Under the pieces are notes generated by a model that worked only from the letters and a program-made list of their open reading frames with translations, ran no database searches and was not told the origin of the DNA. Made by a program: the position numbers and the translations under genes. A DNA stretch of 51,901 nt, from IMG/VR virus record IMGVR_UViG_3300009658_000001, one strand, 5' to 3'. Origin of the DNA: a virus. Of the stretch, positions 5,866 to 34,212 are shown one piece after another; position 1 is the first letter of the stretch, and the number at the start of each line of letters is the position of its first letter.

Positions 5866-6404
5866 GGCCCTTCGTTCGACTGTCCGGCGAGTTCCTCCCG
5901 TCGGAGGCGCGGCGCACTCTCCTGAACCGTGTTCGGAGTCGTCACTTCGTCGACGTGGTCGACCATATATCAACGAGCGGCGCGCCGGACGGCCTGTCGT
6001 TCCTGCCGACGGCCACCGTCGAGCGACTGATCCCTGAAGCACTGAACAAGCTGCGCCGCACGTGCCCGCTGCCGTTCACTCCGCACGTCTTCGTCTTCCG
6101 CCCGGGCGCGTCCATCGCGCCTCACGTCGACGGTCGAAGCGTGCGACAGTGCGCGATCGCGGTTCCGCTCTGGCCACACGACCACGAGTACACGCCCACT
6201 CTGTTCTGGCGAGACGGTTTCGTCACTGATCAACTGCGCTACGGCGATCTGCCTGCGCTGATGAACCTGCAAGCGCTTCACAGTGTCGGCGCCAGTCAGT
6301 GTCACCGCGTGAACTTCCAACTGTCGTTCGCGACGCCGTACGACGAGGCGAGGGTCGCGCTCGAACCGTGGCACCCAACTTTCGGAGAAGACTTGTGCGA
6401 GTGA
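5862..6404 (+). CDS. Asp/Asn beta-hydroxylase-like 2OG-Fe(II) cupin oxygenase
   Basis: GTGA overlap start. It has an HxD...H facial triad (APHVDGR ... LQALHSV) and a downstream Arg (HRVNFQLSF), as in the Asp_Arg_Hydrox family. Confidence 0.55.
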   Translation: MRPFVRLSGEFLPSEARRTLLNRVRSRHFVDVVDHISTSGAPDGLSFLPTATVERLIPEALNKLRRTCPLPFTPHVFVFRPGASIAPHVDGRSVRQCAIAVPLWPHDHEYTPTLFWRDGFVTDQLRYGDLPALMNLQALHSVGASQCHRVNFQLSFATPYDEARVALEPWHPTFGEDLCE

Positions 6405-7084
6405 TGTTCATGTGGAGCGGCGGCGTCGAGAGCACCGCGACGATCAAGCACCGCCTCGAAACGACGGACGACGAGATCTTCGTGCACTACATCCGCCACA
6501 ACAGCCGTGAGGGGCGGCTCATGCACGAGAACCGGGCCGTCGCTGACTTGCTGCCGCGCCTCAACGCAATCCGTCCGGTTCGCTACAGTGAGAGCGCGCT
6601 CGAACTGATCGGAGGTCAAGGGCTCGCTTGGGACTTCCAGGTGATGTACCCGATCGCGCTCGTCGCCATGCGGCACTTCAAGTGCGAGCAGGTCAATCGC
6701 GGTCTCTGCCTTGAGGACAACTGGCACCGGCAGCAAGGCATGCCGCCCCTGCGCAACCCGTTCGGCGGCGGGTTGCACCGTCACCACACGCTCCGCAAAG
6801 CTCTCGCGCACATGCTCCAAGGAAGCGAGACGCTCGACTCGATCGCGCCGATGATTCCGGAGTATGAGTGGCCCAAGGCGCAGCACTGGCAAGTGCTCGG
6901 CGACCTGGCACCGCTCACGTGGAGCTGCAGACGGCCTCTGCCGGGAGGTCAGGAGTGCGGGAGGTGCCACTCCTGCACCGACCGGGCGGCAGCGAAGCGC
7001 GGGACGAGCGACATCGCCGAGGTGCGCGAGCTCTTGGAGCGATGTGGCGCGCGTCCGGACCTCCCGGCAACTTCGTCAATGTAA
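6404..7084 (+). CDS. QueC-like PP-loop ATPase (adenine nucleotide alpha-hydrolase) with a C-terminal Cys4 cluster
   Basis: TGATG overlap start. It has the PP-loop WSGGVES, and the C-terminal WSCRRPLPGGQECGRCHSCTDR resembles the QueC zinc site. Confidence 0.65.
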   Translation: MFMWSGGVESTATIKHRLETTDDEIFVHYIRHNSREGRLMHENRAVADLLPRLNAIRPVRYSESALELIGGQGLAWDFQVMYPIALVAMRHFKCEQVNRGLCLEDNWHRQQGMPPLRNPFGGGLHRHHTLRKALAHMLQGSETLDSIAPMIPEYEWPKAQHWQVLGDLAPLTWSCRRPLPGGQECGRCHSCTDRAAAKRGTSDIAEVRELLERCGARPDLPATSSM

Positions 7085-9672: not shown

Positions 9673-11529
9673 ATGCACGCACTTGACCTCGAAACGAGTT
9701 CGATCTCCGGCGACCTGTCCGACTACATGGCCTTGGAGCCATGGCGAGCGCGCCAGGGCAAGGGCTTCATCAGCTCACTGCACGTGCACGGTGACGTGCA
9801 CGACATCCATATCAAACGACCGACGCGCGAACAGTTGATTGAAGTGCTGGAGAAATTGAGGGGCGAGGAGGTGTACGCGCACTTCGCGCTCTTTGACGTG
9901 GCGTGGCTCATCGCGTCGATCGAACCGAACCGACTCGCTCCACTGCACTCCGCGATCAAGGGCGTGCGCTGGCGAGACACGGCGCTCCTTACCAAGTGGT
10001 GCATCAACGGTCGCAAGAGCGAGTACTTCAGCTACTCTCTGCTGAACATCATCTACACGTTCAAGGACAAGCTCGGTCACGACGGCGCCGAGGAGTTCGT
10101 GCGCATGAAGCAAGCGCAGACCCTCGTCGCGGACGATCCGTACTGGGAAGAGCGGGGTCGCCAGGACGTGCTGTGGACCTACCGCCTTGCGAAGTTCATG
10201 GAGACGCAGTTGCCGCCCCCCTGCAAGCGCGGCTACGTGATCGAGGCGCGCGCCATCGCGCAGACCGCTAACAGCTGGATGATAGGGATATACGTCAATG
10301 AAGCGAACCTCAAGATCGCGGAGTCCCAAATCGAGTCCGACATCGTCGCCGGATGCGCAGCTCTTGGACTTACAGAATCGGTTGTTTCAAGTCCAGCGCA
10401 ACTTGGCCGAGTTGTCTTTGGCAGTTGGGGATTTGAGCCAATTGCTCGTACTCCTACTGGACAGCCAAAGGCGGACGCTGATACTTGGATCGTCCTTGCT
10501 CATGCGACTGGAGACCAACGACTCCGAACTCTCCTCAAAACCCGTCAAGCACTGACGCTCAGGAGCAAGTACATCCGCACGGTGTACGACGCACTGGCCC
10601 GCACGGGCGACGGCTTCATGTACGGCAAGCCGCTGCTCTTCGGCACGTCCTCCGGTCGACTGACGTACAGCTCTGAGACTGTGTCCGGCGTCAAGGTGAG
10701 CATGGCTCAGCACCAGATTCCTCGCAAGGACAAGATCATTCGGGCCTTTCTCTGCCCACCGCCTGGCACCAAGCTGTTCGAGACCGACGCCATGGCGCAG
10801 GAGTCCCGCATCATGGGTATCTGGTCCGGCGACGAGGAGATCATCCGCATCTTCAACGAGGGGATCAACTTCCACGCGAGCATGGCCGCTGAGATATACG
10901 GAATGGCCTACGAAACGTTCATGGAGGGCTACAAGCAGGAGTCGACCGAAGGGCTCGAGGGCGTGTTCACCGAGCGCAGGCAGTACGGCAAGCTTACGAA
11001 CCTCTCCTGCAACTTCCGCATCGGTGGCAAGAAGCTCGCGCACAAGGCTCTCGTCGACTACGACACATACACGTCCGAGGCGGACGGTCGGAAACTCGTG
11101 AACACCTTCAAGCAGAAGTACCGGCGCGTGCCTGAGTACTGGGACAACATCGTCGCCTTCGCCAAGCAGTATGGGTACTCGTACACCCTTGCTCAGCGCC
11201 GTTGGAAGGCGCCGAAAGAGATGCTCAACAGCTCCGACGCGTGGAAGGTCGAGGGCACGGTGATCAGTCACCCGATCCAGGGGACAGGCGGCGAGATGGC
11301 TCTGGCGGCGATGTCGTCCGTGCCGGACGAACTGCTGCAGATGAGTCTGCACGACGGCCTCTTCTGGCTCCTGCCCGAAGACGGTCGCGAGAAGGAGCAC
11401 GCCGCGTCGATTCTCGAGCGGATGAATGCCACGAACTACCAAGCACTGTGGGACCTGCCGAATCCGCTGCCGATCCCACTGCTGTACGAAGCTTCAAAGA
11501 TCGGAACCTCTTACGCAGATGTCAAGTGA
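9673..11529 (+). CDS. Family A DNA polymerase with 3'-5' exonuclease domain
   Basis: ExoI motif LDLETS at the N-terminus. Pol motifs are DAMAQESRIMG, RRQYGKLTNLSCNF and LHDGLFWL. Confidence 0.9.
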   Translation: MHALDLETSSISGDLSDYMALEPWRARQGKGFISSLHVHGDVHDIHIKRPTREQLIEVLEKLRGEEVYAHFALFDVAWLIASIEPNRLAPLHSAIKGVRWRDTALLTKWCINGRKSEYFSYSLLNIIYTFKDKLGHDGAEEFVRMKQAQTLVADDPYWEERGRQDVLWTYRLAKFMETQLPPPCKRGYVIEARAIAQTANSWMIGIYVNEANLKIAESQIESDIVAGCAALGLTESVVSSPAQLGRVVFGSWGFEPIARTPTGQPKADADTWIVLAHATGDQRLRTLLKTRQALTLRSKYIRTVYDALARTGDGFMYGKPLLFGTSSGRLTYSSETVSGVKVSMAQHQIPRKDKIIRAFLCPPPGTKLFETDAMAQESRIMGIWSGDEEIIRIFNEGINFHASMAAEIYGMAYETFMEGYKQESTEGLEGVFTERRQYGKLTNLSCNFRIGGKKLAHKALVDYDTYTSEADGRKLVNTFKQKYRRVPEYWDNIVAFAKQYGYSYTLAQRRWKAPKEMLNSSDAWKVEGTVISHPIQGTGGEMALAAMSSVPDELLQMSLHDGLFWLLPEDGREKEHAASILERMNATNYQALWDLPNPLPIPLLYEASKIGTSYADVK

Positions 11530-14391: not shown

Positions 14392-14436
14392 GTAATTACG
14401 GTTGAGAATTGGTCTTGGCCGATGGAGGTATCAGGA

Positions 14437-14976
14437 ATGAGCTATCAGGACGAAGATTTCGAGGAAGAGGGCTACTTCGCGGAGGTCGACCAGGGCGATC
14501 CCACCGGCAAGGACCCGAAGTTCTACCGACTGGACGGCCTCAATTTGCCGCCGGCCGAGTTGCAGGTGATGAAGGTGGACGACTTGTTCGCGGAGTACAT
14601 CTCGCTTCGCAACCAGTTGACGTCCGACCGTCAGGGTTGGAAGTCGCGCGAGGCGAGGGTCAAACAGCAGATGGCGACGATCGGCGCCGTGCTTCTGAAC
14701 AAATCGCAGGAGCTGGGCGTGACGTCTCTGTCGAGTGACAAGGGCACTGGTTACCAGCAGACCAAGGAGCGCCTCGTCGTCGCGCCGGACGGCTGGAAGG
14801 ACCTCACTGCGTGGGTCAGGGAGACCGGCAACTTTCAAGTTCTGCAGAAGAGGGTGTCGCCCGACGCCGCCAAGGAGGTGCGCGAGGAGACGGGCGATCT
14901 CCCGCCCGGAGTCGAGTCGACCAGGGAGCTCACCTTCGTGGTGCGGTCCCCGATCAAGAGCGGCCGCAAGGCCTGA
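14437..14976 (+). CDS. Hypothetical coiled-coil replication-module protein (possibly Gam/Gp157-like)
   Basis: ATG at 14437, 8 nt after ggagg (ORF track start 14422). The architecture is only loosely Gam-like. Confidence 0.45.
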   Translation: MSYQDEDFEEEGYFAEVDQGDPTGKDPKFYRLDGLNLPPAELQVMKVDDLFAEYISLRNQLTSDRQGWKSREARVKQQMATIGAVLLNKSQELGVTSLSSDKGTGYQQTKERLVVAPDGWKDLTAWVRETGNFQVLQKRVSPDAAKEVREETGDLPPGVESTRELTFVVRSPIKSGRKA

Positions 14977-14997
14977 TTTCCACTATCAGGAGTAAGT

Positions 14998-15936
14998 ATG
15001 ACGATCGAACTTCCGGAGCATTTGCGAACCGGCCCGCTCGCTGAGCAGGCGGCGAAGTCACTGCGCGACGCGCAGTCCATGGCGCAGGCCTCCAACTCCG
15101 TCCCCCGCATCTCGCTGAAGGGGCGCGAGTTCCAGCTGATGGTCGACGGCGAGTCGGAGGCCAAATTCCGCGACTACCTCGACGTGGTCGTGGTCGGCGT
15201 GGAACCCGACGGTGGTCGCATGATCAAGGCCTGGTACGAGAAGGGCTACCAGGCCGGTTCGAAGGAGCCGCCGACCTGTGCGTCGGACGACGGGATCGCT
15301 CCGAGCGGCTACGTGCAGAAGCCGCAGTCGCAGACGTGCCAGGGCTGTCCCAAAAACCAGTTCGGGTCGGCGACGTCGCCGAGCGGCAAGCCCACTAAGG
15401 CGTGTCGTGACAGCAAGCGGGCGTGGGTGAAGATCGCTCCGGGCAATATGATGGTGATGCCGCCCGGTCAGCCGCCGAAGGCTTACCCCGGCGCCGAAAA
15501 GCCCTTCGTGGACCGGACGCTCTTCGGCCTCAACATCACCGTCGCCAGTCTGAAGAACTGGTCCGACCACGGCAAGCGGCTGCTGGCTCTGGGTCAGGGC
15601 CCGGCGGTGTGCGTCACCCGCATCGTGATGCAGGAAGGTGATTTCCCGTGGATGGATTTTCAGATCGCGGCGTGGCTCTCCGCTGACGACGCGCCACAGA
15701 GCCTCAAGCTCGCCGAACAGCGACCGTGGAAGATTCAGTACGCCAACGCAGGTCTGGCGCTGAACGGGCCCGACGCCGGCGGCACGAGGCAGGGCGTGCC
15801 GACTGCACTGCCCGGCGCGATTCCGCCGCACCTCCAGCAACAGACGACCGTCGGTGGTCAGCCCGCCGAGGTGGTCGACGCGGCGAAGCCTCCGCCCAAC
15901 GCCGCCGAGATCAACAAGGCCGTCGAGAATTGGTGA
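14998..15936 (+). CDS. Conserved replication-module protein with a Cys cluster (possible ssDNA-binding or recombination mediator)
   Basis: 312-aa ORF with an RBS (aggag). It contains PPTCASDDG...CQGCPKNQFGS...KACRD. The function was not recognised with confidence. Confidence 0.45.
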   Translation: MTIELPEHLRTGPLAEQAAKSLRDAQSMAQASNSVPRISLKGREFQLMVDGESEAKFRDYLDVVVVGVEPDGGRMIKAWYEKGYQAGSKEPPTCASDDGIAPSGYVQKPQSQTCQGCPKNQFGSATSPSGKPTKACRDSKRAWVKIAPGNMMVMPPGQPPKAYPGAEKPFVDRTLFGLNITVASLKNWSDHGKRLLALGQGPAVCVTRIVMQEGDFPWMDFQIAAWLSADDAPQSLKLAEQRPWKIQYANAGLALNGPDAGGTRQGVPTALPGAIPPHLQQQTTVGGQPAEVVDAAKPPPNAAEINKAVENW

Positions 15937-15955: not shown

Positions 15956-16159
15956 ATGGGAAATGTCAAAGAGATCGAACTCGCTGTGCGGGTCCGCACC
16001 GTGACCGAGAAGGCGATGCTCGTCAGCAACGACGGTGAGACCTACGTGTGGGTACCGAAGTCGCAGATCACTGACTGGTCCGGCTCTGAGGAGTTGGACA
16101 TGAGGGTCGAGACGATCTTCCTGCCCGAGTGGCTCGCCACCGAGAAGGGGCTCGTGTGA
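15956..16159 (+). CDS. Small hypothetical protein
   Basis: ATG at 15956 after gaggagg. The ORF is 67 aa and is GTGA-coupled to the next gene. Confidence 0.5.
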   Translation: MGNVKEIELAVRVRTVTEKAMLVSNDGETYVWVPKSQITDWSGSEELDMRVETIFLPEWLATEKGLV

Positions 16160-17781
16160 CGCGCGAACTCCTCGTGACCACGGGTCACAACAGCTCAGCG
16201 ATACTGCTCGAGGACGGGATCGTCCAATGGGGCTACGAGACTGAGCGTCTGACCGGCGTGAAGTCCGACAGCAGGTGGCCGCTCGAGCACCTCGAACGAT
16301 GGGGTCAGTCCGTCGGCAAGGTCGACGTGGCCTACGTCACGCACTGGGCGCCGGACGGGCAGTTGTCCAGCATGTCGGCGAAGCACTACGACCCACTCCC
16401 TCACCTCGAGGGCGTGCCCATCGTGTCGCTCAGCGCCGACCCGGCCGATGGTCGCACCCACCACGACACGCACGCTCACGCAGCGCTCGCCTACGCGGGG
16501 CAGAACTTTCCGCGAGAGGGCGCCTACTGCCTCGTCGTGGACGGATTCGGCGTGTGCGGCGAGCACTTCAGCGCGTACTCACTGTCGTCCGGTCAGCCGG
16601 AACTGGTGAAGCGCGTGCACGGCTACGACACCAGTCTCGGTCTGTGGTATCAGTACGCGACGGCGTTCCTCGGGCTCAAGATGCACGAGGACGAGTACAA
16701 GCTATTAGGCTACGAGGCCTACGTGGCGCCTGAGCTGTGGCCGAGGGTGCAGAAACTGGCGCTCCACACCTCGTTCGAATGGCTGGACGCGATGAGCAAG
16801 AGCGTCTTCGGGAGCGCCTACGACCCTCTGTATTCGACGGAGGCCCTGCCCAAGACGAAGGAGCTCGTCTTCAAGCGACTCCTCTGGGCCGCTCGAGAGC
16901 TCGGCGTCGAGGACAGCACGTCGTTCGAGGGCCGCGCGATTCTGGCGTGCTACGTGCAGGCCGTCCTCGAGAAGGTCGTGCTGAGCGTGGTGGGCGATCT
17001 GAAGCCGAAACACCTGCTCGTGAGCGGCGGCGTCTTCTACAACGTCAAGCTGAACCTCAAACTGCTGAAGTCGATCGAAGGCAAGTTCTGCGCCTACCCG
17101 CTCGCGGGCGATCAGGGCAACGCGCTCGGTCTGTACGCCAAACTGCACCCTCAGTGGAGGTTCCCGAACAACCTCTTCTGGGGCAAGCGAGTACTGCGCG
17201 ACGTGCAGGGCGTGCCTAACCTCTTCGTCGGCGACGAGGTGGAGGTCCTCAGCGCCGTCAAGCGACAGCTGCGGTCGGTCGGATTCGTCAACCTCGTGCG
17301 CGGCGACATGGAGTTCGGCCCGAGGGCCCTGTGCAACACCAGTACGCTCGCATTGCCGACCAAAGCCAATGTCGAGCGAATCAACGCGATGAACGACCGC
17401 AACACGGTCATGCCGATGGCGCCTGTCATGACGTCGTCGCGCTACCTCGAGTTGTTCGAGGACACGAAGCGCGTGTGGCGGTCACAGCAGCACATGATCG
17501 TGGCCATGGAGTACGCCGAGCACCCTCTGCCTGAGATGATGGGCGTCGCGCACGGGTACGAGCGGCCGAACCGCCACCACACGGGGCGACCGCAAGTCGT
17601 CGGCGACGACCCGTTCATGACGTCACTGCTGGACGAGTTCGGCGGCGTGCTGATCAACACAAGTTTCAACTATCATGGGAGGCCGATCGCCCTCGGAACC
17701 GACTCTATCGTGAGCAACCACATGGCGATGCTGGACCGTGAGCCCAGCGTCGTCACCACCGTCGTAAGGAGTGACAATTGA
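16156..17781 (+). CDS. NodU/CmcH-family O-carbamoyltransferase
   Basis: N-terminal TTGHNSSAILLEDG...ETERLTGVK, HHDTHAHAA and LVVDGFG, plus C-terminal RGDMEFGPRALCNTS and INTSFNYHGRPI. All are typical of carbamoyltransferase N and C domains. Confidence 0.85.
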   Translation: MTRELLVTTGHNSSAILLEDGIVQWGYETERLTGVKSDSRWPLEHLERWGQSVGKVDVAYVTHWAPDGQLSSMSAKHYDPLPHLEGVPIVSLSADPADGRTHHDTHAHAALAYAGQNFPREGAYCLVVDGFGVCGEHFSAYSLSSGQPELVKRVHGYDTSLGLWYQYATAFLGLKMHEDEYKLLGYEAYVAPELWPRVQKLALHTSFEWLDAMSKSVFGSAYDPLYSTEALPKTKELVFKRLLWAARELGVEDSTSFEGRAILACYVQAVLEKVVLSVVGDLKPKHLLVSGGVFYNVKLNLKLLKSIEGKFCAYPLAGDQGNALGLYAKLHPQWRFPNNLFWGKRVLRDVQGVPNLFVGDEVEVLSAVKRQLRSVGFVNLVRGDMEFGPRALCNTSTLALPTKANVERINAMNDRNTVMPMAPVMTSSRYLELFEDTKRVWRSQQHMIVAMEYAEHPLPEMMGVAHGYERPNRHHTGRPQVVGDDPFMTSLLDEFGGVLINTSFNYHGRPIALGTDSIVSNHMAMLDREPSVVTTVVRSDN

Positions 17782-18176
17782 CTGACATCATCGACCAAAT
17801 TTTTGACTTCAACGAGCAAGTCATCGGCACGGGCGACGTGCCGTTGAACGCCTTGACCGAGAAGCAGCACAATTGGACGCAGGCCTTCTGTGCCGAGGAG
17901 CTGATCGAGCTGCGCGAGGCCTTCGAGGCGCAGGACATCGTCAAGATGGTGGACGCTGTGGGCGACCTCATCTACGGCGCGATGGGCACGTTCAAGAAAA
18001 TGGGCCTCACGCGCGAACAGGTCGGCGCGGCCTTCACCGCGATCCACACGGCCAACATGACCAAAAAGCGCGGTGACAAGGGACGTGGCTCCGACGAGGA
18101 CGCCACTAAGCCGGCGGACTTCGTGCCGCCCGAGGAGGCGATCGGTCACATCCTGTTCGGCGAGGTCGACGCATGA
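17778..18176 (+). CDS. All-alpha NTP pyrophosphohydrolase (MazG/HisE-like), candidate dCTPase
   Basis: TTGA overlap start. The EELIELREA...VDAVGDLIY...AIHTANMTKK pattern is that of MazG-like phage NTP-PPases. Confidence 0.65.
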   Translation: MTDIIDQIFDFNEQVIGTGDVPLNALTEKQHNWTQAFCAEELIELREAFEAQDIVKMVDAVGDLIYGAMGTFKKMGLTREQVGAAFTAIHTANMTKKRGDKGRGSDEDATKPADFVPPEEAIGHILFGEVDA

Positions 18177-18742
18177 GCCGGATCGTGCTGGAGGGGCCAG
18201 ACCACGCCGGCAAGACCACGCTCGCGAAGCGGCTGTGCACGATCACCGGTGCCAAGTACCACCACCCGGGCGGCGCACCCGCCGACGAGACGGCGGAGCG
18301 GGCGTGCCTCATGGAACAGCAGCTCCTGATCGAGCGCGCGGGCCCGCTCGTCCTCGACCGCGTCACGTGCGTATCGCAGCAGGTGTACAACCCGAACGAG
18401 GCCCTCGACCCCGTGCGGACCCGCTGCCTGGACACCATGTGCACGTCGCCGTTCGTCTTTGTGGTGTACTGCCGCCCGCCGAACGAGCACCTCGTGGACG
18501 TGGGCAATTACACCTGGCGCCCCGAAGAGACTGAGGAGCACCGCCAGAAAATCGTGACGAGGGCCTTCGAGTGGGTGGAGCGGTACGACCGCGTCATGGA
18601 GAAGGTGCCGCACCTGTCGTACGACTTCAAGGACGTCGCGGCGGCCGAGACGCTCGAGACCGCGCTCATCGGCGCGCTCACCGAGGACGGCCTCTGGATG
18701 CAGTGGCTGAGCGCAACGGTCCTATCGGGGGGTCGGAGATGA
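18173..18742 (+). CDS. Thymidylate-kinase-like dNMP kinase
   Basis: ATGA overlap start. It has the P-loop LEGPDHAGKTTLAKRL and a DRV..SQQVY motif. Confidence 0.7.
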   Translation: MSRIVLEGPDHAGKTTLAKRLCTITGAKYHHPGGAPADETAERACLMEQQLLIERAGPLVLDRVTCVSQQVYNPNEALDPVRTRCLDTMCTSPFVFVVYCRPPNEHLVDVGNYTWRPEETEEHRQKIVTRAFEWVERYDRVMEKVPHLSYDFKDVAAAETLETALIGALTEDGLWMQWLSATVLSGGRR

Positions 18743-19545
18743 GGCTGGTCAGGACCCCGTTCAACCGCGACACGTTCTACGAGGCCTATCAAGCGGTCAT
18801 GCTCGCGCACGAGTCGAGGCCTCGGGGCCAGCTCGTGCGCGACCTCCGCGGGGTGTGCCTCGTGTTCGACCTCGACCAGCCTCTGCTGACGTCGTTCGAG
18901 GACCGCAAGCTGAACCTGAACTACTGCAAGCGGGAGTGGCTGTGGTACCTCGGCGCTGACCCTTACGACGACAGCATCGTCGAGCACGCCAAGATGTGGG
19001 CCAAGTTGAAGCAGCCGGACGGCCGCTACCTCAGCAACTACGGCCAGTACGTCTTCGGCGGGCGCTCGAGTCAGTTCGCGTACGCGGTGCACCAGCTGCG
19101 GGTCGACCCTGACAGTCGCAGGGCGAGCATCGTGCTGCTGGACCGCGACCACCTGTTCTTCGAGAACGTCGACACGGTCTGCACGTACGCCATCAACTTC
19201 GCGATCGTGCGGGGCCGCTTCAACATGACGGTGCACATGCGCAGCAACGACGTCGTGTTCGGCCTCACCAACGACGCGTTCTGCTTCTCGCAGATCGCGG
19301 AGTTCGCGTACCAGAAGCTGTTGCAGTGGCACCCGAACCTGCTGCGCGGCGAGTACGTCCACATCGCCGACTCGTTGCATGTGTACGAGCGGCACTTCGA
19401 GATGCTCGAGCGAATCCTGGAGAGCCCGAAATGGTCGCCGATCGACGTGCCTCGCCCCACGTTGGCAGAGGTGCGGAAGCTGATCAGTTCGCGCGGTCAA
19501 GAGGGTGAGGGAGTGTACTGTGACTGGCTCAAGACCGTCGATTGA
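18739..19545 (+). CDS. Thymidylate-synthase-fold dCMP hydroxymethylase (T4 gp42-like)
   Basis: ATGA overlap start. SNYGQYVF, DPDSRRASIVL, DTVCTYAINF, HMRSNDVVFGLTNDAF and SLHVYERHF parallel T4 gp42 (MRSNDVVFGFRNDYAW) as recalled from memory. An Asp occupies the base-specificity position. Confidence 0.8.
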   Translation: MRLVRTPFNRDTFYEAYQAVMLAHESRPRGQLVRDLRGVCLVFDLDQPLLTSFEDRKLNLNYCKREWLWYLGADPYDDSIVEHAKMWAKLKQPDGRYLSNYGQYVFGGRSSQFAYAVHQLRVDPDSRRASIVLLDRDHLFFENVDTVCTYAINFAIVRGRFNMTVHMRSNDVVFGLTNDAFCFSQIAEFAYQKLLQWHPNLLRGEYVHIADSLHVYERHFEMLERILESPKWSPIDVPRPTLAEVRKLISSRGQEGEGVYCDWLKTVD

Positions 19546-20038
19546 CGAGTACTTCCTGCAAATGGCGGAGTTGGCCTCGAGCCGGGCCACCTGCCGCCGC
19601 AGGGCCGTCGGCTGCGTGCTCGTCGACGGGGCGAACCACGTGCTCAGCACCGGCCACAACGGCGTTGCCAAGGGGCTCCCTCATTGCAACGAAGTCACGG
19701 AAACGCTCTCGTTCGAGTCCGTCAACGGTCGACGCCCCGAACACTGGGAGGAGCGGTCGATCAAGGTCTACGGCCACTCGTGCCCAGGCGCTGCGTGCAA
19801 GCCGGGCGAGGGCCTCCACCTGTGCGAGGCCATCCACGCGGAGCAGAACGCGCTCGTGCAGTGTCGTGACACCTCCGCCGTTTTCACAGTTTACTGCACC
19901 GCCAGTCCGTGTGTGCAGTGCATGCGCCTGATCCTCGGGACAGGGGCCAAGCGCATCGTCTTCCGCCAGGAGTATCCACATGCCCAATCGAAAGAACTCG
20001 CGGAGCGCGCCGGAATCGAGTGGCTACGTCTTGGCTGA
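19520..20038 (+). CDS. dCMP deaminase
   Basis: Zinc motifs HAEQNA and SPCVQC. The GTG at 19520 follows gagggag; an alternative GTG lies at 19505. Confidence 0.85.
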   Translation: MTGSRPSIDEYFLQMAELASSRATCRRRAVGCVLVDGANHVLSTGHNGVAKGLPHCNEVTETLSFESVNGRRPEHWEERSIKVYGHSCPGAACKPGEGLHLCEAIHAEQNALVQCRDTSAVFTVYCTASPCVQCMRLILGTGAKRIVFRQEYPHAQSKELAERAGIEWLRLG

Positions 20039-20284: not shown

Positions 20285-21394
20285 ATGCTTTACGAAGTGA
20301 AAATGTGGCGCAGGAACGCGCTGGGCCTTGGCACATGGAGGGTGTACGGCCTGCCGCCCGACAACCGGTCGAGGGGCCGCGTGGTGATCATGCACGCATC
20401 CACCGAGGGCGGCTCCGAGATCTCGCACGTGGACGACGTGTTCGTCAACAAATCAGGTCGCACCATCGAAGAGCAAATGAAGCTCGAGATAGACTCTCGC
20501 TGCTCCCGCATGCGGGACAAGGGCTACAAGCTGTCCCGCGAAGAGGCCTTGCAGGGCGCGACCAATCAGCTCGGACTAATCAACCCGATGCTCGCGCAGA
20601 AGGTGCAGGACGTGAGGCTCACGGCCGCCGACTTCGCCGCGAACGGTGCGTTCGTACAGCCCAAGTACGACGGGCACCGCTGCCTCGTGACCAAGCGGGA
20701 CGGTGACATGCTGGCGTACAGCCGCAAGGGCAAGCCCATCGAGACGATCGGCCACGTGCTCGAGCAGCTGTACCCGATCATGCAGGACGGTGACACGTTC
20801 GACGGAGAGCTGTACGTGCACGGCCAGCCGCTGCAGGCCATCTCGAGCCTTATCAAGCGCGATCAGGCCGGGAGCCGTGCCCTGACCTTCAGGTGGTACG
20901 ACCTGTGCGACCTGAAGCGCGTCTTCCGCGACCGCTACAACCTCATGGTGGATCTGCACGCGAGCGTGGTCGACAAGTCGGCCGTGCAGCTGACGCCCAC
21001 CGGGCGCGTCGACAGCATGTCCAAGGTCTACGACTTCTTCCGCAAGTGTCGCCAGAAGGGGTACGAGGGCGCGATGCTCAGACTCAGCAGAGCCGGTTAC
21101 GAGACCGCCAGACGAGCCAGTCAACTGCTCAAAGTCAAGGAGCGGGAGGACTGCGAGGTCACGACGATCGGCTGTAAGCCATCGGCGCGCGGGTGGGCCG
21201 TGCTCAGGGTGCGCGCCGATTGGGGAGCGGAGTTCGACGTGTCGGCCCCCGGCAGTGTAGACGAGAAGGTCGAGGTGTTGAAGAACTACGAGGAGCGGTA
21301 CCACAACCGGCGGCTCACCGTCGAGTACGCTTGTCTGACGACCGAGCGGGTACCGTTTCACTGTGTAGCGGTGCGCTGGCACGAGGAGGTGTGA
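20285..21394 (+). CDS. ATP-dependent DNA ligase
   Basis: Adenylation motif QPKYDGHRC and an RBS (aaaggagag). Confidence 0.85.
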   Translation: MLYEVKMWRRNALGLGTWRVYGLPPDNRSRGRVVIMHASTEGGSEISHVDDVFVNKSGRTIEEQMKLEIDSRCSRMRDKGYKLSREEALQGATNQLGLINPMLAQKVQDVRLTAADFAANGAFVQPKYDGHRCLVTKRDGDMLAYSRKGKPIETIGHVLEQLYPIMQDGDTFDGELYVHGQPLQAISSLIKRDQAGSRALTFRWYDLCDLKRVFRDRYNLMVDLHASVVDKSAVQLTPTGRVDSMSKVYDFFRKCRQKGYEGAMLRLSRAGYETARRASQLLKVKEREDCEVTTIGCKPSARGWAVLRVRADWGAEFDVSAPGSVDEKVEVLKNYEERYHNRRLTVEYACLTTERVPFHCVAVRWHEEV

Positions 21395-22446: not shown

Positions 22447-22595
22447 CGATTACGAGGATACCAGAGGACGCCGTGCACCTGTGGCCGGACGGCACATGGT
22501 GCTGGCACTACGAGCTCGGCGAGTACGTCCACATGTCCGACGATTACAAGGTGCTCCTGCCCGACAGCAGTGAGTACGAGGAGTTCTTCGAATGA
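22443..22595 (+). CDS. Small protein of 50 aa, absent from the ORF track
   Basis: Hand translation gives MTITRIPEDAVHLWPDGTWCWHYELGEYVHMSDDYKVLLPDSSEYEEFFE. There are ATGA overlaps at both ends. Confidence 0.5.
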   Translation: MTITRIPEDAVHLWPDGTWCWHYELGEYVHMSDDYKVLLPDSSEYEEFFE

Positions 22596-23011
22596 TCAAG
22601 TACGTGCTCGGTTTCGCCTTCGACGACCTTGGTCGCGTAGCGCTCGTGCAGAAGGAGCGGCCTGCTTGGCAGAGCGGCAAGCTCAACGGCCTCGGTGGCC
22701 ACATCGAGCCGCGAGAGACAGCCCTCGACGCGATGGTGCGGGAGTTCCACGAGGAGGCCGGCGTCGTCGTGCCCGACTGGACCGTCGTCGGCGTCATGCG
22801 CGGACCGGACTGGCATGTCACCGTACTGACGGCGGTCTCGCCAGAGGTCCGCAACGTGACGACCGTCACAGACGAGCTCGTGATGCTGTACGTGCCGGGC
22901 AGCCTATCGCCGAGGGACTGTCTCGCGAACGTCATCCCGCTCGTGCAGCTGTGCAGCCTGCTGCCAGAGCCGCCGTCGAACAAGCGACCGACCTTCGTTC
23001 TTTACTACTGA
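22592..23011 (+). CDS. Nudix hydrolase
   Basis: Nudix box GLGGHIEPRETALDAMVREFHEEAGV. Confidence 0.8.
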   Translation: MIKYVLGFAFDDLGRVALVQKERPAWQSGKLNGLGGHIEPRETALDAMVREFHEEAGVVVPDWTVVGVMRGPDWHVTVLTAVSPEVRNVTTVTDELVMLYVPGSLSPRDCLANVIPLVQLCSLLPEPPSNKRPTFVLYY

Positions 23012-27085: not shown

Positions 27086-27439
27086 ATGGCGACCAAGAAA
27101 CAAGAGCTCGTGCACGGCTGCTTCGCAGACGCGCACGACGGCGAGCCGCTGTTCGTGCTGCGCAGCACGGACCCCCGCGCGCCGGCCGTGGTGCGAGAGT
27201 GGGCCCGGCTGTACCTCGCGAACCGCGTGAGAGCGCTGAGGGACCCCGGCGAAGGCGCCCCCGAGGAGGCCCGCGCCGCCTACGAGGCGGAGCTGGCGCG
27301 GCGCGAGGCGAAGTACGTCGAGGCCAACGAGCTCGCCGACCGCATGGACGCGTACCGCCAAGCGCTCGAGGGCGCCGAGGCGAGCGGAATGGACCCGCAG
27401 GGCTGTCGCGAGGTCGCGGCGCGCGCGGTCGCGCCATGA
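27086..27439 (+). CDS. Hypothetical protein
   Basis: 117-aa ORF with an RBS (aaggagg). Confidence 0.5.
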   Translation: MATKKQELVHGCFADAHDGEPLFVLRSTDPRAPAVVREWARLYLANRVRALRDPGEGAPEEARAAYEAELARREAKYVEANELADRMDAYRQALEGAEASGMDPQGCREVAARAVAP

Positions 27440-28227
27440 TGACCGCCCACCTCGACGACTACACCGTCAAGGTCCACGAGCACGGCTTCGTGCGGCTGCG
27501 CAACTGCGCCGGCCCCACGCGGCGCGACGAAATCGTGACGGTCTTCGAGGACTCACAGGTCCCGTCCATCGTCAGGCACTTCGACGCGGACGACGTCGAC
27601 CCCGCGCAGGCGGCCCGCATGTCGTTCGGCGGCATGGGCAAGGAGCGCTCGCGCGACGCGGACCTCAAGCTCGCCGCCTACCTCATGCGGAACGCACACA
27701 CGAGTCCGTTCGAGATGGTGCAGGTGTGGCTCGAGATGAAGCTCCCCATCTTCGTTGCGAGGCAGCTCGTCAGACACCGCACGGCCCGCCTCAACGAGGT
27801 CAGCGGCCGCTACGTGACGCTCCCCGCGGAGTGGTACGTGCCTGCGCTGGAGGACGTCGTCCTACAGAGCGCCGACCGGAAGCAGGGAGGGCGCGCCGTC
27901 GACTTCGACGACCCAGAACAGGTCGCGTCGGCCATCGAGTACCGCACCCGGTTGCAGGAGTCGTGCGCCCGAGGGTACGAGGCCTACGAGAGGTCCGTCG
28001 GCGACGGCGTGGCCATGGAGCAGGCGAGGCTCAGCCTGAGCCTCAACCACTACACCCACTGGCTGTGGAACCAGGACCTGCACAACCTCTTCCACATGCT
28101 GAGCCTCCGCGACCACTCGCACGCGCAGCCCGAAGCGAGGGCCTACGCACAAGCCATCGACCAGCTCGTGCGGCAGGTGCTCCCCGAGTGCTTCCGCCTG
28201 TACGACGAGTTCCGGAGGCGCGCGTGA
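27436..28227 (+). CDS. thyX: FAD-dependent thymidylate synthase ThyX
   Basis: ThyX signature RHRTARLNEVSGRY. ATGA overlap start. The upstream part of the 503-aa track ORF was rejected. Confidence 0.85.
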   Translation: MMTAHLDDYTVKVHEHGFVRLRNCAGPTRRDEIVTVFEDSQVPSIVRHFDADDVDPAQAARMSFGGMGKERSRDADLKLAAYLMRNAHTSPFEMVQVWLEMKLPIFVARQLVRHRTARLNEVSGRYVTLPAEWYVPALEDVVLQSADRKQGGRAVDFDDPEQVASAIEYRTRLQESCARGYEAYERSVGDGVAMEQARLSLSLNHYTHWLWNQDLHNLFHMLSLRDHSHAQPEARAYAQAIDQLVRQVLPECFRLYDEFRRRA

Positions 28228-29747: not shown

Positions 29748-29977
29748 TCGTCGTGACCGGAGGGGCGACCGAGCGCCGCGGGCTCCTCGTACAGTTCCAC
29801 GAGGAGGACCTCCGCGAGCTGAAGGAGGCCCTCGACGCGCTCGAACAGGGGATACACCTCGACAACGCCCACGACCTCAACCGTGGCGCCCCGATCTCCA
29901 AGCGCTTCCCCGAGTGGGCGCGCCGACTCGAAGCCGCGATCGTCGCCAAACTCAACGACAACCGGAGGTTCCCGTGA
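29744..29977 (+). CDS. Hypothetical protein
   Basis: GTGA overlap start. 77 aa. Confidence 0.5.
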   Translation: MIVVTGGATERRGLLVQFHEEDLRELKEALDALEQGIHLDNAHDLNRGAPISKRFPEWARRLEAAIVAKLNDNRRFP

Positions 29978-30489
29978 TCGACCTCCCGACGGGTCGCTCG
30001 CCGCACGACCTCCTCCAGGAGCAGCAGGTGGGGCGGCCCAACGGCGTCTGGAGGGTCCTCGTCGTGTGCCAGCTCCTCAACCGCACGCACGGGCGCCAAG
30101 TGAGGCCCCTCGCGGACGAGCGCTACGGGGCGCCGCTCTTCGTCCGATGGCCGACGCCCCACGCGATGTCGCTCGCGCGACTCCCCGAGCTCCAGCTGCT
30201 GCTGAGGCCGCTAGGCTTCGCGGAACAGCGCTCGCGCAGCCTCAAAGCGATGAGCGCCCAGTACAACGCCATGCTCTTCGCCGACCCGGAATTCTGGCGC
30301 GGCTCCGAAGACGGTGAGTGGTGCAAGGGCCTCCAGGGCTGCGGACAGTACGCCAAGGAGTCGCTCGACTTGGTGGTTTACGGGCGACTGAGCGCACCGA
30401 CCACCGACCACTGGCTCACGAAGTACCAGCAGTGGCGGCTGAGCCAGGCCGCGGGCACCGCCGAACTTGACGACATGGAGGCCTCGTGA
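29974..30489 (+). CDS. MBD4-like HhH-GPD DNA glycosylase
   Basis: GTGA overlap start. SPHDLLQE, QLLNRTHG, LLLRPLGF..QRSRSL, LQGCGQYAKESL and DHWLTKYQQW parallel the MBD4 glycosylase domain as recalled from memory (LNRTSG, LLKPLGLYDLRAK, LHGIGKYGNDSY, DHKLNKYHDW). Confidence 0.6.
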   Translation: MIDLPTGRSPHDLLQEQQVGRPNGVWRVLVVCQLLNRTHGRQVRPLADERYGAPLFVRWPTPHAMSLARLPELQLLLRPLGFAEQRSRSLKAMSAQYNAMLFADPEFWRGSEDGEWCKGLQGCGQYAKESLDLVVYGRLSAPTTDHWLTKYQQWRLSQAAGTAELDDMEAS

Positions 30490-31853: not shown

Positions 31854-32252
31854 ATGAAGAGGTGGACCGAAGAGGAGCGCGGTGGCTCCGGAATTGATTC
31901 GCAGGGGAGGGTCCGCTGCCGTGACAGGTACGCGTACCAGAGACTGAGGGCCTTTGGCTTCTCGAAGCAGTTCATGATCGACCACTGGTACGTGCTGGAG
32001 CGCGACCGGGCACCGCCGATGACCATGCTGCAGAGGAAGGCCTGCAAGGTCTGCGGGGTCGTGAAGCGAAACGACTTCAAAGAGTTCCCGAAGGAGCAGT
32101 GGGGAGGCGCCGGGAAGCACACGACCGCCGACACGTGTCGGCTGTGCATGAGCAAGGCGATCTCGGACGGGCGCTTGCGAGAGATGGCGAAGGAGTGGGA
32201 GCAGCAAGTTGCGTACGAACAGTACGGCAGTGAAATGTGGGAGCCTAAGTGA
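31854..32252 (+). CDS. Hypothetical protein with two CxxC pairs
   Basis: ATG at 31854 after ggagag. It contains CKVCG...CRLC. The start codon lies inside a GTGCGATG motif. Confidence 0.5.
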   Translation: MKRWTEEERGGSGIDSQGRVRCRDRYAYQRLRAFGFSKQFMIDHWYVLERDRAPPMTMLQRKACKVCGVVKRNDFKEFPKEQWGGAGKHTTADTCRLCMSKAISDGRLREMAKEWEQQVAYEQYGSEMWEPK

Positions 32253-32439
32253 GCGCGGCCGGGAGACCTTCGCACAATGGGGCATAGAACGTTGTCCGGC
32301 TTGGTGAATTTACTTTGGGGGGACAACGTTGTGCGATGGTGTCCCCCTGGGCCGATCGATCAAATAAAACAGTCCGCGTTTTGGTGGACATCGTACATCG
32401 TGCGGTGCGATGTCGGTTGCACATAAGGTGTTGTCGCCG

Positions 32440-32700
32440 TTCGTTAGGGCCGGCAATCCGGTTGTATGTACCTAATTATAAAGTTAGATAGAATAAAAAA
32501 TAGCAGGGCCTAATAGTCCATGGTATGTATTGCCTGGAGGTGGATTATCGTATGTATTTTTTATTTTATATATATTGGTTCGTTAAATATGGTACACAAA
32601 AGCGGTAACGAAGTTTTTACGTTCCGTGATAATAACTTATGTAAACGGACCTCGACACCTGTCATGGGACATTTATGGGACATGGGGTTTAGGTCCCTGA
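32440..32700. other. Strongly AT-rich non-coding segment in an otherwise GC-rich genome
   Basis: It contains strings such as taattataaagttagatagaataaaaaatag and gtattttttattttatatatattgg, plus short repeats: GTATGTA three times and ATGGGACAT twice. Confidence 0.8.
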
Positions 32701-32848
32701 ATTGTATCCAGGTTGGGCCCTCGAGGATCGGCCACGGTGTCCGATGGACGTCGTCCTACGAACGCCCAGCTCAAAAAGTAAAATGTTTGATCAAAAAACA
32801 GCGCCCCTGGATCACGAAACCCGCTACAGATCAGTTCCTGGCATGGGC

Positions 32849-32860
32849 GGCTCCCGGACG
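32849..32860 (+). repeat. GGCTCCCGGACG element, copy D, core only
   Basis: Exact 12-mer without a recognisable 5' arm. Confidence 0.5.
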
Positions 32861-32916
32861 ATCCTCCGAAAGTACTTTGATCATGAATTATCAAAACCAA
32901 CGCTCTTCCCGACGTC

Positions 32917-32935
32917 GGGCGCGGTACAATTGTAC
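32917..32935 (+). promoter_or_regulatory. Promoter, class II, containing the perfect palindrome GTACAATTGTAC
   Basis: GGGCGCGGTACAATTGTAC. The palindrome spans 32924-32935. Confidence 0.5.
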
Positions 32936-32970
32936 TTGAGCGTTGATGCTCGAGCAACTAGGAGAATTCG

Positions 32971-33531
32971 ATGACGAAGGTTTTTGATCCCGTGAAAGAG
33001 TGTTCCGCGCTGACGGCGCGACTGGAGGCCCTCACTGCTACCGTGGACGAGCTCCGGAGGGCGTTGGACGCGGGCCGCGTGGAGGCGGCCGAGCTGAAGG
33101 GCGTGCTCGAGGAGCTGGCCGCCTCGAACAACGCCCTCGTGGAGGGCCAGGAGCAGCTGGAGGCGTCGTGCGCTGAGCTGACCAACGAGGTCCGGGGGGC
33201 GCTGAACGGGTTCGAGGAGCCGGAGGGCGGTGTTCCGGAGGACGAGTCCGACGAGCAGCGCGCGACGCGCGTGGGGCTGCTCGCGAGGGTGACCGATTTG
33301 GAGGCCCGCGTGCGCGGCCGCAACCGGAGCGCGCCCACGAAGCGCAACATGACGGACGCCGACGCGGTCCGGGTGCTGACCGGGGACGTGACGGCGCTCG
33401 GGCACAAGGAGGCGGGCGAGGCCGTCGGCCTCACGTACGCCCAGGTGTACTCCTGCCGCATGGAGTACACCTTCAAGCACGTCCACAAGAAGCTCCGCGA
33501 CGACGGCTGGAAGAACCCGTTCACGAGGTAG
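32971..33531 (+). CDS. Coiled-coil protein with a C-terminal HTH-like domain, paralogue of 34404..34700
   Basis: The C-terminal MTDADAVRVLTGDVTALGHKEAGEAVGLTYAQVYSCRMEYTFKHVHKKLRDDGWKNPFTR aligns with the C-terminus of the minus-strand 98-aa protein. Confidence 0.6.
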   Translation: MTKVFDPVKECSALTARLEALTATVDELRRALDAGRVEAAELKGVLEELAASNNALVEGQEQLEASCAELTNEVRGALNGFEEPEGGVPEDESDEQRATRVGLLARVTDLEARVRGRNRSAPTKRNMTDADAVRVLTGDVTALGHKEAGEAVGLTYAQVYSCRMEYTFKHVHKKLRDDGWKNPFTR

Positions 33532-33538
33532 GTTTCGG

Positions 33539-33566
33539 GGGCCGCCGTTGCGAGCGGCCCGATTTT
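33539..33566 (+). terminator. Rho-independent terminator after 32971..33531
   Basis: Stem GGGCCGC / GCGGCCC with loop cgttgcga, followed by gatttt. Confidence 0.7.
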
Positions 33567-33577
33567 GGGCTCCGAAG

Positions 33578-33673
33578 CCCGCTGGGGCTGACGGGCGCGG
33601 GCGGACCCGCTGGGGCTGACGGGCGCGGGCGGACCCGCTGGGGCGGGGACCCGAAGACCGAGGCCCGCTGGGG
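33578..33673. repeat. CCCGCTGGGG iterons: four copies, the first two as exact 28-bp tandem units
   Basis: Copies at 33578, 33606, 33634 and 33664. The unit is cccgctggggctgacgggcgcgggcgga. The array lies between two convergent terminators. Confidence 0.85.
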
Positions 33674-33686
33674 ACCGGGCGCGCGG

Positions 33687-33708
33687 AAAAGGCCGCCCGC
33701 GGGCGGCC
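33687..33708 (-). terminator. Rho-independent terminator of the minus-strand operon
   Basis: Palindrome GGCCGCCCGCGGGCGGCC followed on the minus strand by TTTT. Confidence 0.7.
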
Positions 33709-33762
33709 TCGGTCAGCGGTTGCGCTTGTGGAGGACGAGGAGGTAGGCGATCAGGAGGGCGG

Positions 33763-33894
33763 TCACTTGCGGCTCCATACCGCCAGGACCGCGCCGGCGG
33801 CCAAGGTGACGACCCCGGTGTAGAGGCCGCCGAAGTGGGTCACGGCGGGCGACGCCACGACGAGGGCGAGGGCGAGGGCTGCGCGGACGTTCAT
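33763..33894 (-). CDS. Small membrane protein of 43 aa
   Basis: Internal ATG with GGAG about 9 nt upstream. The sequence is hydrophobic: MNVRAALALALVVASPAVTHFGGLYTGVVTLAAGAVLAVWSRK. Confidence 0.4.
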   Translation of the reverse strand: MNVRAALALALVVASPAVTHFGGLYTGVVTLAAGAVLAVWSRK

Positions 33895-33975
33895 CGAATG
33901 GCTCCGGACGGTAGGAGGATTTTCCAGCGGCGTTCGACGTCGCACCAGTAGAAGAAGATCGAGGAGCGCGGGGCG

Positions 33976-34212
33976 TCAGGCATACAGGCCTCCCTGAGGA
34001 ATTCGCACGTCGGTCACGTAGTCCGTGGTGCTGCAGTAGAAGTAGTCCCCGGGCGGCAAACCGTTCTGTGCGACGAGCTCCGGAGCGAGGCGCACGTTGG
34101 GGTCGGGGCTCTTGCCCAGCTGAAACCAGTGAAATGCTACGCGCTTGGTCTTGTAGACGCAGCCTTCGCGCATTTCAGTGATCTTGAACACGTCCATCTT
34201 GACGTACATCAT
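33976..34212 (-). CDS. Hypothetical protein of 78 aa
   Basis: ATGATG start at 34212 within the track ORF 33976..34266. Confidence 0.45.
   Translation of the reverse strand: MMYVKMDVFKITEMREGCVYKTKRVAFHWFQLGKSPDPNVRLAPELVAQNGLPPGDYFYCSTTDYVTDVRIPQGGLYA

Follow-up and report, generated by a model that had tools for sequence, protein, structure and literature searches.

A predicted pathway to 5-carbamoyloxymethylcytosine in an uncultured tailed-phage genome

We analysed IMG/VR record IMGVR_UViG_3300009658_000001, a viral stretch of 51,901 bases (hereafter the window; 63% G+C, with nearly all genes on the + strand), for the function of a gene cassette at positions 16156-20038 that encodes an O-carbamoyltransferase, a MazG/HisE-like pyrophosphohydrolase, a kinase, a ThyA-like enzyme of thymidylate synthase fold and a deaminase. 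The cassette probably replaces cytosine with 5-hydroxymethylcytosine (5hmC) in phage DNA and then carbamoylates it, following a pathway type described by Yang et al. in 2021 (the MetaGPA study, eLife, PMC8670742), of which it is a clean further example and not a new system. A preliminary description, made from the sequence alone, had proposed a route from deoxycytidine triphosphate (dCTP) to the monophosphate (dCMP), to 5-hydroxymethyl-dCMP (5hm-dCMP), to 5-hydroxymethyl-dCTP (5hm-dCTP) and into DNA, with carbamoylation as the last step, and this functional reading is supported in silico by every computational check that the description had named.

The closest precedent is a list of domains. 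On cytosine-modified viral contigs, the top companions of Carbam_trans_C were Carbam_trans_N, Thymidylat_synt, PRA-PH, dCMP_cyt_deam_1 and MafB19-deam (PMC8670742), and the Pfam content of the window's cassette is exactly that published set. PRA-PH, dCMP_cyt_deam_1 and MafB19-deam all fall within 3 kb of the carbamoyltransferase, and the ThyA-like gene lies 958 nt downstream of it within the same coupled string. The MetaGPA contigs resemble the window further in a Thymidylat_synt domain with Asp at position 177 and in their tailed-phage context. In the same study, carbamoyltransferase and ThyA homologues occurred together only on modified contigs, and DNA ligase was among the modification-associated domain cores. 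One metagenomic carbamoyltransferase, cloned from sewage viral DNA, converted 5-hydroxymethyldeoxycytidine (5hmdC) in single-stranded DNA, as well as its triphosphate 5hmdCTP, to 5-carbamoyloxymethyl-dC (5cmdC) in vitro. This enzyme required carbamoyl phosphate and ATP, acted more weakly on 5hmdC in double-stranded DNA, and was inactive on 5-methyl-dCTP (5mdCTP) and 5-hydroxymethyl-dUTP (5hmdUTP). 5-Carbamoyloxymethylcytosine is so far known only as its in-vitro product. The preliminary description had stated that reports of the base came only from viral metagenomics; this is in line with the literature that we searched, in which we found no phage shown to carry it.

Cassette layout and enzymes

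All five open reading frames (ORFs) that had been proposed are present on the + strand at the positions first given (Table 1), and the translational coupling claimed for them is borne out by overlapping start and stop codons at every junction. The coupled string is, however, made up of six genes, not five, and begins with an ORF of 67 amino acids whose stop codon overlaps the GTG start of the carbamoyltransferase. Taken in order from this ORF, the junctions are the 4-nt overlaps GTGA, TTGA, ATGA and ATGA, followed by a 26-nt overlap. Purine-rich Shine-Dalgarno-like sequences precede the cassette gene starts, and no terminator-like site was found on the + strand between 12000 and 24000. Hidden-Markov-model searches confirmed the families assigned to the carbamoyltransferase, the thymidylate synthase homologue and the MazG-like protein.

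Table 1. Positions of the cassette genes and of other features discussed in the text, numbered along the window.
Feature	Position	Strand	Evidence
Family A DNA polymerase	9673..11529	+	PF00476 on metagenome gene calls of the identical locus
ORF of 67 amino acids, coupled upstream of the carbamoyltransferase	15956..16159	+	PHROG 8389 (unknown function) 4.5e-12; metagenome gene call
O-carbamoyltransferase (NodU/CmcH/TobZ type), predicted 5-hydroxymethylcytosine carbamoyltransferase	16156..17781	+	PF02543 and PF16861; PHROG 1601
MazG/HisE-like all-alpha NTP pyrophosphohydrolase, predicted dCTPase, possibly dUTPase too	17778..18176	+	Pfam PRA-PH; PHROG
P-loop nucleoside-monophosphate kinase (Tmk-like), predicted 5hm-dCMP kinase	18173..18742	+	PHROG; AF2/Foldseek
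Thymidylate-synthase-fold cytosine-nucleotide C5 hydroxymethylase (T4 gp42 / MilA type), predicted	18739..19545	+	PF00303
Zinc deaminase, dCMP-deaminase family	19520..20038	+	PF00383
ATP-dependent DNA ligase, conserved downstream neighbour of the cassette	20285..21394	+	PF01068 1.4e-20
Nudix hydrolase	22592..23011	+	PF00293 (metagenome gene calls); PHROG MutT/NUDIX 3.1e-7
Flavin-dependent thymidylate synthase ThyX	27436..28227	+	Pfam Thy1 1.8e-43

The ThyA-like protein matches Thymidylat_synt at 2.8e-16 and departs from canonical ThyA in having Asp at the Asn177 position, Thr at the His147 position and a best NCBIfam ThyA equivalog score of 53 bits against a cut-off of 327. Ranked by sequence, its nearest solved relatives are the CMP 5-hydroxymethylase MilA (1.5e-19) and the dCMP hydroxymethylase gp42 of phage T4 (5e-16), with thymidylate synthases at 5e-13 or worse. 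In an alignment that also included T4 gp42, E. coli ThyA, the dCMP methylase of phage Xp12 and the ThyA-like counterpart from Xanthomonas phage Xp15, the motifs quoted in the preliminary description (DTVCTY, HMRSNDVVFGLTND and SLHVYERHF) are present and align with gp42, and the description was correct in placing an Asp at the position of the uracil-specifying Asn: Asp179 aligns with Asn177 of E. coli ThyA, D179 of gp42 and the corresponding Asp of MilA. An Asn-to-Asp change at this position is reported to shift the preference from deoxyuridine monophosphate (dUMP) to dCMP, and Yang et al. treat His147 of the E. coli enzyme as a second position that discriminates. The residue in question, which follows the nucleophile Cys148, is Thr149 in the window protein, as in gp42 and MilA, whereas the Xp12 methylase has Pro and E. 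coli His. Both Cys148 and E66 (the Glu58 network of E. coli) are conserved, and Y101, E66, C148, T149 and D179 are invariant across 36 homologues. The predicted specificity for cytosine is well supported by this active-site pattern.

The gp42-type reading of the ThyA-like enzyme also held when it was compared with methylases, given that neither any ThyA nor the Xp12 methylase comes as close to the protein as MilA and gp42 do, in sequence as well as in fold. With BLASTP it scores 70.5 bits against gp42 and 55.5 bits against the Xp12 methylase, and Cys-Thr, SNYG and MRSNDVVFG, common to it and gp42, correspond to Cys-Pro, SAYG and LRSSDLFVG in Xp12. An AlphaFold (AF2) model built from 36 homologues (predicted local distance difference test score, pLDDT, 90) gave MilA as all of its top seven PDB matches in Foldseek, with E values around 1e-18 and template modelling (TM) scores of 0.73-0.76; the TM score was 0.77 against gp42 when normalised by target, and 0.62-0.69 against thymidylate synthases when normalised by query. 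This overall similarity, together with a partner carbamoyltransferase that needs a hydroxyl to act on, suggests that the product would be a hydroxymethyl and not a methyl group. An argument from the C-terminal tail, by which hydroxymethylases would be told by the absence of the closing tail of ThyA, was not used, given that the window protein has a non-aligning extension of similar length.

The carbamoyltransferase (541 amino acids) matches Carbam_trans_N at 1.1e-15 and Carbam_trans_C at 5.3e-22, both above the gathering cut-offs, and PHROG 1601 at 7.6e-59. It has an N-terminal Kae1-like and a C-terminal YrdC-like domain, and the solved structures related to it are those of the O-carbamoyltransferases NovN, GdmN, 7xb6 and TobZ. 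The catalytic His/Asp metal site, the loss of which the preliminary description had named as a reason to abandon the assignment, is retained in the form of H102 and H106 (HHDTH), D129 (VDGFG) and D319 (GDQG), whose aligned counterparts in GdmN and NovN are HHEAH, DGRG and HDAG. These four residues and EFGPR are invariant in 27 homologues at 41-79% identity, giving the motifs HHDxH, DGFG, GDQG and EFGPR; in more distant homologues the region of the His motif is gapped in pairwise tblastn comparisons, which we set aside as unreliable in favour of the multiple alignment. TobZ, NovN and GdmN thus have both domains, the HxxxH/D/D metal site and EFGPR in common with the window enzyme, but their chains are longer (576-702 amino acids) and their acceptors are sugars or polyketides, whereas the acceptor here would be the hydroxymethyl group of a nucleobase.

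The pocket differs as well. After EFGPR the window protein reads ALCNTS where canonical enzymes have ALGNRS, and it has L380, C393 and T395 in place of W/F/Y, G and R in NovN, GdmN and 7xb6, as well as N413 and M419 at the positions of NovN K443 and R449. The first three correspond to NovN W408, G421 and R423, a mapping that follows NovN numbering. Positions W408, G421 and R423 (TobZ) are those at which Yang et al. saw the strongest difference in conservation between modified and unmodified contigs (PMC8670742), and an aliphatic residue, Cys and Thr occupy them in 70 of 80 viral homologues. These departures are consistent with membership of the clade found on modified contigs, which they do not prove, given that the text of the paper names no variant residues.

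The remaining genes of the cassette fit enzymes of the nucleotide pool. The MazG-like protein matches PRA-PH (MazG/HisE-type all-alpha NTP pyrophosphohydrolases) at 2.2e-8 and a PHROG of nucleotide pyrophosphohydrolases at 9.6e-18, and its acidic motif EExxE...DxxxD is conserved in 23 homologues. The kinase ORF matches a PHROG labelled 'thymidylate kinase' at 6.9e-9 and had no match in Pfam, NCBIfam or PDB sequence searches, apart from P-loop noise in PDB. For lack of solved sequence relatives we therefore turned to structure prediction, and the AlphaFold model (pLDDT 93.8) retrieved the SPbeta protein YorR/BSU20280 and thymidylate kinases with Foldseek, at TM scores of 0.5-0.65. The family conserves the P-loop GxxGK and a Tmk-like NMP-binding motif, DRxxxSxxxY. 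By modelled fold and motifs the protein would be a P-loop nucleoside-monophosphate kinase, with 5hm-dCMP as its predicted substrate.

The deaminase matches dCMP_cyt_deam_1 (PF00383) at 1.4e-19 and, more weakly, MafB19-deam at 3.3e-9. Its relatives in PDB include the S. mutans dCMP deaminase (2e-14) and the enzymes of cyanophage S-TIM5 and T4 (Cd), and the zinc motifs, HAE and PCxxC, are kept across 36 homologues. Metagenome gene callers start this gene at ATG 19562, whereas the preliminary description had started it at GTG 19520. The latter is the better choice: a GAGGGAG ribosome-binding site precedes it, and it restores a conserved N-terminal motif, DEYFLQMAELASSRATC, that aligns with solved dCMP deaminases. 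Genes of the dCMP-deaminase family beside a ThyA homologue with the Asp, here ThyA(Asp), are typical of cytosine-modified phages according to a 2024 preprint from the same group (Yang et al. 2024).

A separate ThyX had been proposed to cover the synthesis of thymidine monophosphate (dTMP), and such a gene does lie 7.4 kb downstream of the cassette, with a Thy1 match at 1.8e-43 (149 bits) and a match to solved ThyX at 4.5e-40 (141 bits). Its predicted role is to supply dTMP independently of the ThyA-like enzyme. The signature reads RHRTARLNEVSGRY as against RHRxxSxxxxSxRY, with Arg at the first Ser (Ser88 of T. maritima). We considered this Arg as a mark of a repurposed or inactive enzyme and rejected the idea, because the position is naturally variable: among the 150 nearest representatives out of 1.8 billion proteins it is occupied by S in 62, N in 35, R in 13, T in 6, K in 5, A in 3 and G in 1, so that the Arg variant occurs in 13 of the 125 near relatives that bear the motif.

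Put together, these enzymes would act as follows. The MazG/HisE-like enzyme, or possibly the Nudix hydrolase encoded downstream, would hydrolyse dCTP to dCMP, both barring plain cytosine from phage DNA and providing the substrate of the hydroxymethylase. The ThyA-fold enzyme would transfer the methylene group of methylenetetrahydrofolate to C5 of dCMP, followed by hydration to 5hm-dCMP, with Cys148 as the nucleophile and Asp179 reading the N3/N4 face of cytosine. The Tmk-like kinase would raise this product to 5hm-dCDP, host nucleoside diphosphate kinase would take it to 5hm-dCTP, and the family A polymerase of the phage would incorporate the modified nucleotide. In the carbamoyltransferase, the YrdC-like domain would form carbamoyl-AMP from carbamoyl phosphate and ATP, and the Kae1-like metal site would pass the carbamoyl group to the 5-CH2OH, giving 5-carbamoyloxymethylcytosine, as the metagenomic homologue does in vitro; the acceptor may be 5hm-dCTP or single-stranded or replicating DNA. 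By analogy with T4 cd and td, the deaminase would send part of the dCMP to dUMP for ThyX, making the supply of thymidine triphosphate (dTTP) independent of host ThyA. The expected benefit would be resistance to restriction and to other defences that target DNA.

The same logic, enzyme for enzyme, operates in the hydroxymethylcytosine pathway of T4 (gp56, gp42, gp1, Cd, Td and the alpha- and beta-glucosyltransferases). Of the T4 proteins, gp42 shares Cys148, Asp179 and several motifs with the ThyA-like protein, and Cd aligns with the window deaminase over its full length. The two systems differ in that T4 decorates its base with glucose and the window is predicted to use a carbamoyl group, that dTMP would come from ThyX and not from a ThyA-type Td, that the kinase resembles Tmk and YorR, with no likeness to gp1 detected, that the dCTPase candidate is not detectably like gp56, and that the genes are contiguous in the window and scattered in T4.

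Weighing of the proposed pathway and its alternatives

Several points weigh against this reading of the cassette. The chemistry is a prediction for this phage and its close relatives. We infer, and do not observe, how completely cytosine is replaced and whether carbamoylation comes before or after replication, and the same holds for every substrate assigned in this phage. The metagenomic enzyme that was expressed (about 63 kDa) is similar in size to the 541-residue window protein, and the likeness drawn here between the two is one of domains, size and context. For the ThyA-like enzyme, sequence offers no rigorous discriminator between a dCMP hydroxymethylase and a dCMP methylase, given that the Asp at position 177 is common to both. 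The MazG-like protein had been called analogous in role to the T4 dCTPase gp56; its place in the MazG/HisE family stands, whereas BLASTP showed no significant similarity to gp56 itself (E = 0.1 over 40 residues). Its nearest structures are PDB 3nl9 and the dUTPase-type MazG DR2231, so that the dCTPase role is an analogy and a dUTPase activity is equally plausible. The Nudix hydrolase, whose Nudix box (G-x5-E-x7-REFHEEAGV) is intact and whose gene follows the cassette at a distance of 2.5 kb, could equally be the dCTPase, or could remove other unwanted dNTPs, and its role in the pathway is uncertain. Lastly, many phage deaminases linked to ThyA(Asp) favour 5-methyl-dCTP (5m-dCTP) or 5hm-dCTP over dCMP (Yang et al. 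2024), so that the analogy with T4 may not hold for the deaminase step.

An alternative that we regard as unlikely is that 5hmC is formed as proposed and that the carbamoyl ester is an intermediate, or has another acceptor, leaving a different, undescribed cytosine derivative as the base in the virion. The coupled 67-residue ORF and the many unannotated ORFs of the genome would leave room for further steps, and the viral clade of carbamoyltransferases deviates from the antibiotic enzymes at positions 408, 421 and 423 and at NovN K443/R449. A further candidate is encoded at 6299-7084 (+), in the stretch that separates the tail genes from the primase: this orphan PP-loop ATPase resembles QueC (Pfam QueC 1.9e-5; PHROG 1550 4.8e-11) and carries SGGVES as well as a C-terminal CxxCxxC. 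Against a different final base stand the product of the metagenomic homologue, which is stable 5cmdC in vitro (PMC8670742), and the neighbourhoods of 80 related loci, in which no extra transferase, lyase or amidotransferase is conserved beside the cassette. The QueC-like ORF, moreover, has no homologue in the cultured phages that bear such cassettes (zero tblastn matches in 50,697 cultured phage records), and no TGT/DpdA or other deazaguanine gene was seen in the ORFs scanned; we did not adopt it as a sign of either a deazaguanine system or the cytosine pathway.

Carbamoylation on the nucleotide, before replication, is conceivable because the carbamoyltransferase heads a string of pool enzymes and because phage members of the deaminase family often favour modified dCTPs. 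It is similarly improbable, in our judgement, that the deaminase then acts on 5hm-dCTP or on its carbamoylated form (5cm-dCTP) and adds 5-hydroxymethyluracil (5hmU) or its carbamoyl ester to the virion beside modified cytosine, or that the carbamoyl ester is made only to be displaced, giving a base not yet described.

We give little credence to the idea that the ThyA-like protein methylates dCMP as the Xp12 enzyme does, with 5-methylcytosine in the DNA, a deaminase turning 5m-dCTP into dTTP and a carbamoyltransferase acting on some unrelated substrate. The shared Asp177 would allow it, five of the seven deaminase-linked ThyA(Asp) enzymes tested made 5-methyl-dCMP (Yang et al. 2024), and in Xp12, too, a ThyA homologue with Asp at 177 adjoins a gene of the dCMP-deaminase family. 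Against it, the published carbamoyltransferase, of a family that accompanies ThyA only on modified contigs, was inactive on 5mdCTP (PMC8670742), and the window enzyme is nearer to gp42 and MilA in sequence, motifs and fold than to the Xp12 methylase. The presence of ThyX would make a bypass from 5mdCTP to dTTP unnecessary, and no DHFR (dihydrofolate reductase) gene, such as Xp12 has, was seen beside the ThyA-like gene of the window. Xp12 differs further in that it encodes a HAD hydrolase, lacks a carbamoyltransferase, has a methylase with a ThyA-like C-terminal tail and has a deaminase that prefers 5m-dCTP and is without 34 residues that are inserted in the window enzyme.

Hypermodification based on 5hmU is common in phages. 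A route of this kind, in which dUMP supplied by the deaminase would be hydroxymethylated to 5hm-dUMP and 5hmU in DNA carbamoylated, is nonetheless very improbable here: the deaminase gene lies directly downstream of the ThyA-like gene and the MazG-like protein has a dUTPase as its nearest solved relative, but the ThyA-like family has an invariant Asp, not Asn, at position 179 in 36 homologues, its nearest characterised relatives use CMP or dCMP, and the characterised carbamoyltransferase rejects 5hmdUTP (PMC8670742).

Related cassettes in viromes and cultured phages

Cassettes like the one predicted here to hydroxymethylate and carbamoylate cytosine are neither rare nor new: the type was described in 2021 and is widespread in viromes. 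At E <= 1e-20 the carbamoyltransferase has at least 1315 homologues in the protein database searched, with more than 100 clusters above 50% identity, many of them on contigs of 50-58 kb. Among 80 IMG/VR loci retrieved with the family profile, a ThyA-like gene lies within 6 kb in 71, of which 66 have the Cys-Thr...Asp pattern. The order carbamoyltransferase, MazG, kinase, ThyA-like, deaminase and then ligase recurs in 22-23 of the 80 loci, and a ligase follows downstream in 23 of the 80 and in Xp15.

Phages isolated on Xanthomonas (Xp15), Acinetobacter (Effie, HHU4) and Bacteroides fragilis also bear related cassettes, which have so far gone unrecognised. In Xanthomonas phage Xp15 (Alachuavirus), gp39-gp35 are a carbamoyltransferase, a hydrolase, a small kinase-sized ORF, a ThyA-like protein with Cys-Thr...Asp and a deaminase, followed by a ligase, all as in the window. 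The replication genes upstream are syntenic with those of the window, and no equivalent of the 67-residue ORF is annotated. Acinetobacter phage Effie has a carbamoyltransferase with a ThyA-like gene in a similar layout, and the carbamoyltransferase and ThyA-like genes of Acinetobacter phages HHU4 and MD-2021a also match the window. Measured against the window, the carbamoyltransferases of Xp15 and the Acinetobacter phages are 38-40% identical and their ThyA-like proteins 33-41%. Bacteroides fragilis phages such as BF503P1 (OP172670.1, 38510-44539; carbamoyltransferase 33% identical) have two ThyA-like genes (annotated as deoxycytidylate 5-hydroxymethyltransferase) and Dut in place of the set of MazG, kinase and deaminase. 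The cassette genes of the cultured phages are annotated as 'Nol-like carbamoyltransferase', 'thymidylate synthase' or 'hypothetical', and our literature search found no report on the DNA chemistry of Xp15, Effie, HHU4, MD-2021a or BF503P1.

Unlike the window, these phages are isolates with known hosts. They can be grown and their DNA analysed, and hence the existence of the base in virions, its completeness and its protective value are directly testable. The main practical value of the window is as a pointer to cultured phages in which 5-carbamoyloxymethylcytosine can be sought. The comparison also exposes an error of routine annotation, by which genes of this pathway type are filed as 'thymidylate synthase' or as 'NodU-family/Nol-like carbamoyltransferase', in this case within a bacterial metagenome-assembled genome (MAG). 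What the window contributes beyond the MetaGPA contigs is a whole genome (63% G+C, 123-bp terminal repeat) in which the pool enzymes of the pathway can be seen in context with ThyX, the Nudix hydrolase, the family A polymerase and the ligase. The preliminary description had expected a complete pathway in a closed siphovirus genome to be a valuable model; the window, as an uncultured contig, does not itself offer a laboratory model.

Genome and neighbouring genes

The window is an uncultured, complete phage genome without an established host, and not an isolated phage. Its two ends carry the same 123 bp in direct orientation (positions 1-123 equal 51779-51901), an exact terminal repeat that supports a complete genome of about 51.8 kb, either circularly permuted or terminally redundant. 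The window proteins scanned include a terminase, a portal, a tail tube, a tape measure and a GpJ-like tip protein, and no sheath protein was seen among them, which fits a siphovirus. The earlier wording of a closed siphovirus genome has the terminal repeat in its favour, with the limit that the window is an assembled contig only. The same genome has been assembled repeatedly from metagenomes of JGI and ENA samples (29 index blocks, contigs of 47-52 kb). Nucleotide searches with the cassette and with both halves of the window gave zero matches in 50,697 phage records, indicating a phage without a close sequenced isolate. Its ThyA-like protein is identical to NCBI HRU10621.1, 'MAG TPA: thymidylate synthase [Thermoanaerobaculia bacterium]', so the phage genome was apparently binned inside a bacterial MAG of Thermoanaerobaculia, a filing that is either mis-binning or a weak clue to the host.

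A few other regions are recorded as side observations. Between an SNF2-type helicase and the cassette, 14422-15936 (+) holds two conserved ORFs of 184 and 312 amino acids, the latter Cys-rich, whose PHROG labels are function-unknown or dubious only; by size and position their counterparts in Xp15 are gp41 ('minor head protein') and gp40, and Effie has counterparts as well. An ORF at 29914-30489 (+) gives a weak, sub-threshold HhH-GPD match (2.4e-4; 21.8 bits, where the cut-off is 26.2), and a reading of it as a member of the base-excision glycosylase superfamily found no support in PHROG or NCBIfam. Finally, the coding strand switches within 32000-38400, a region whose ORFs have no Pfam match and in which G+C changes from 0.567 at 34-36 kb to 0.696 at 36-38 kb, with a GC skew of up to 0.15.

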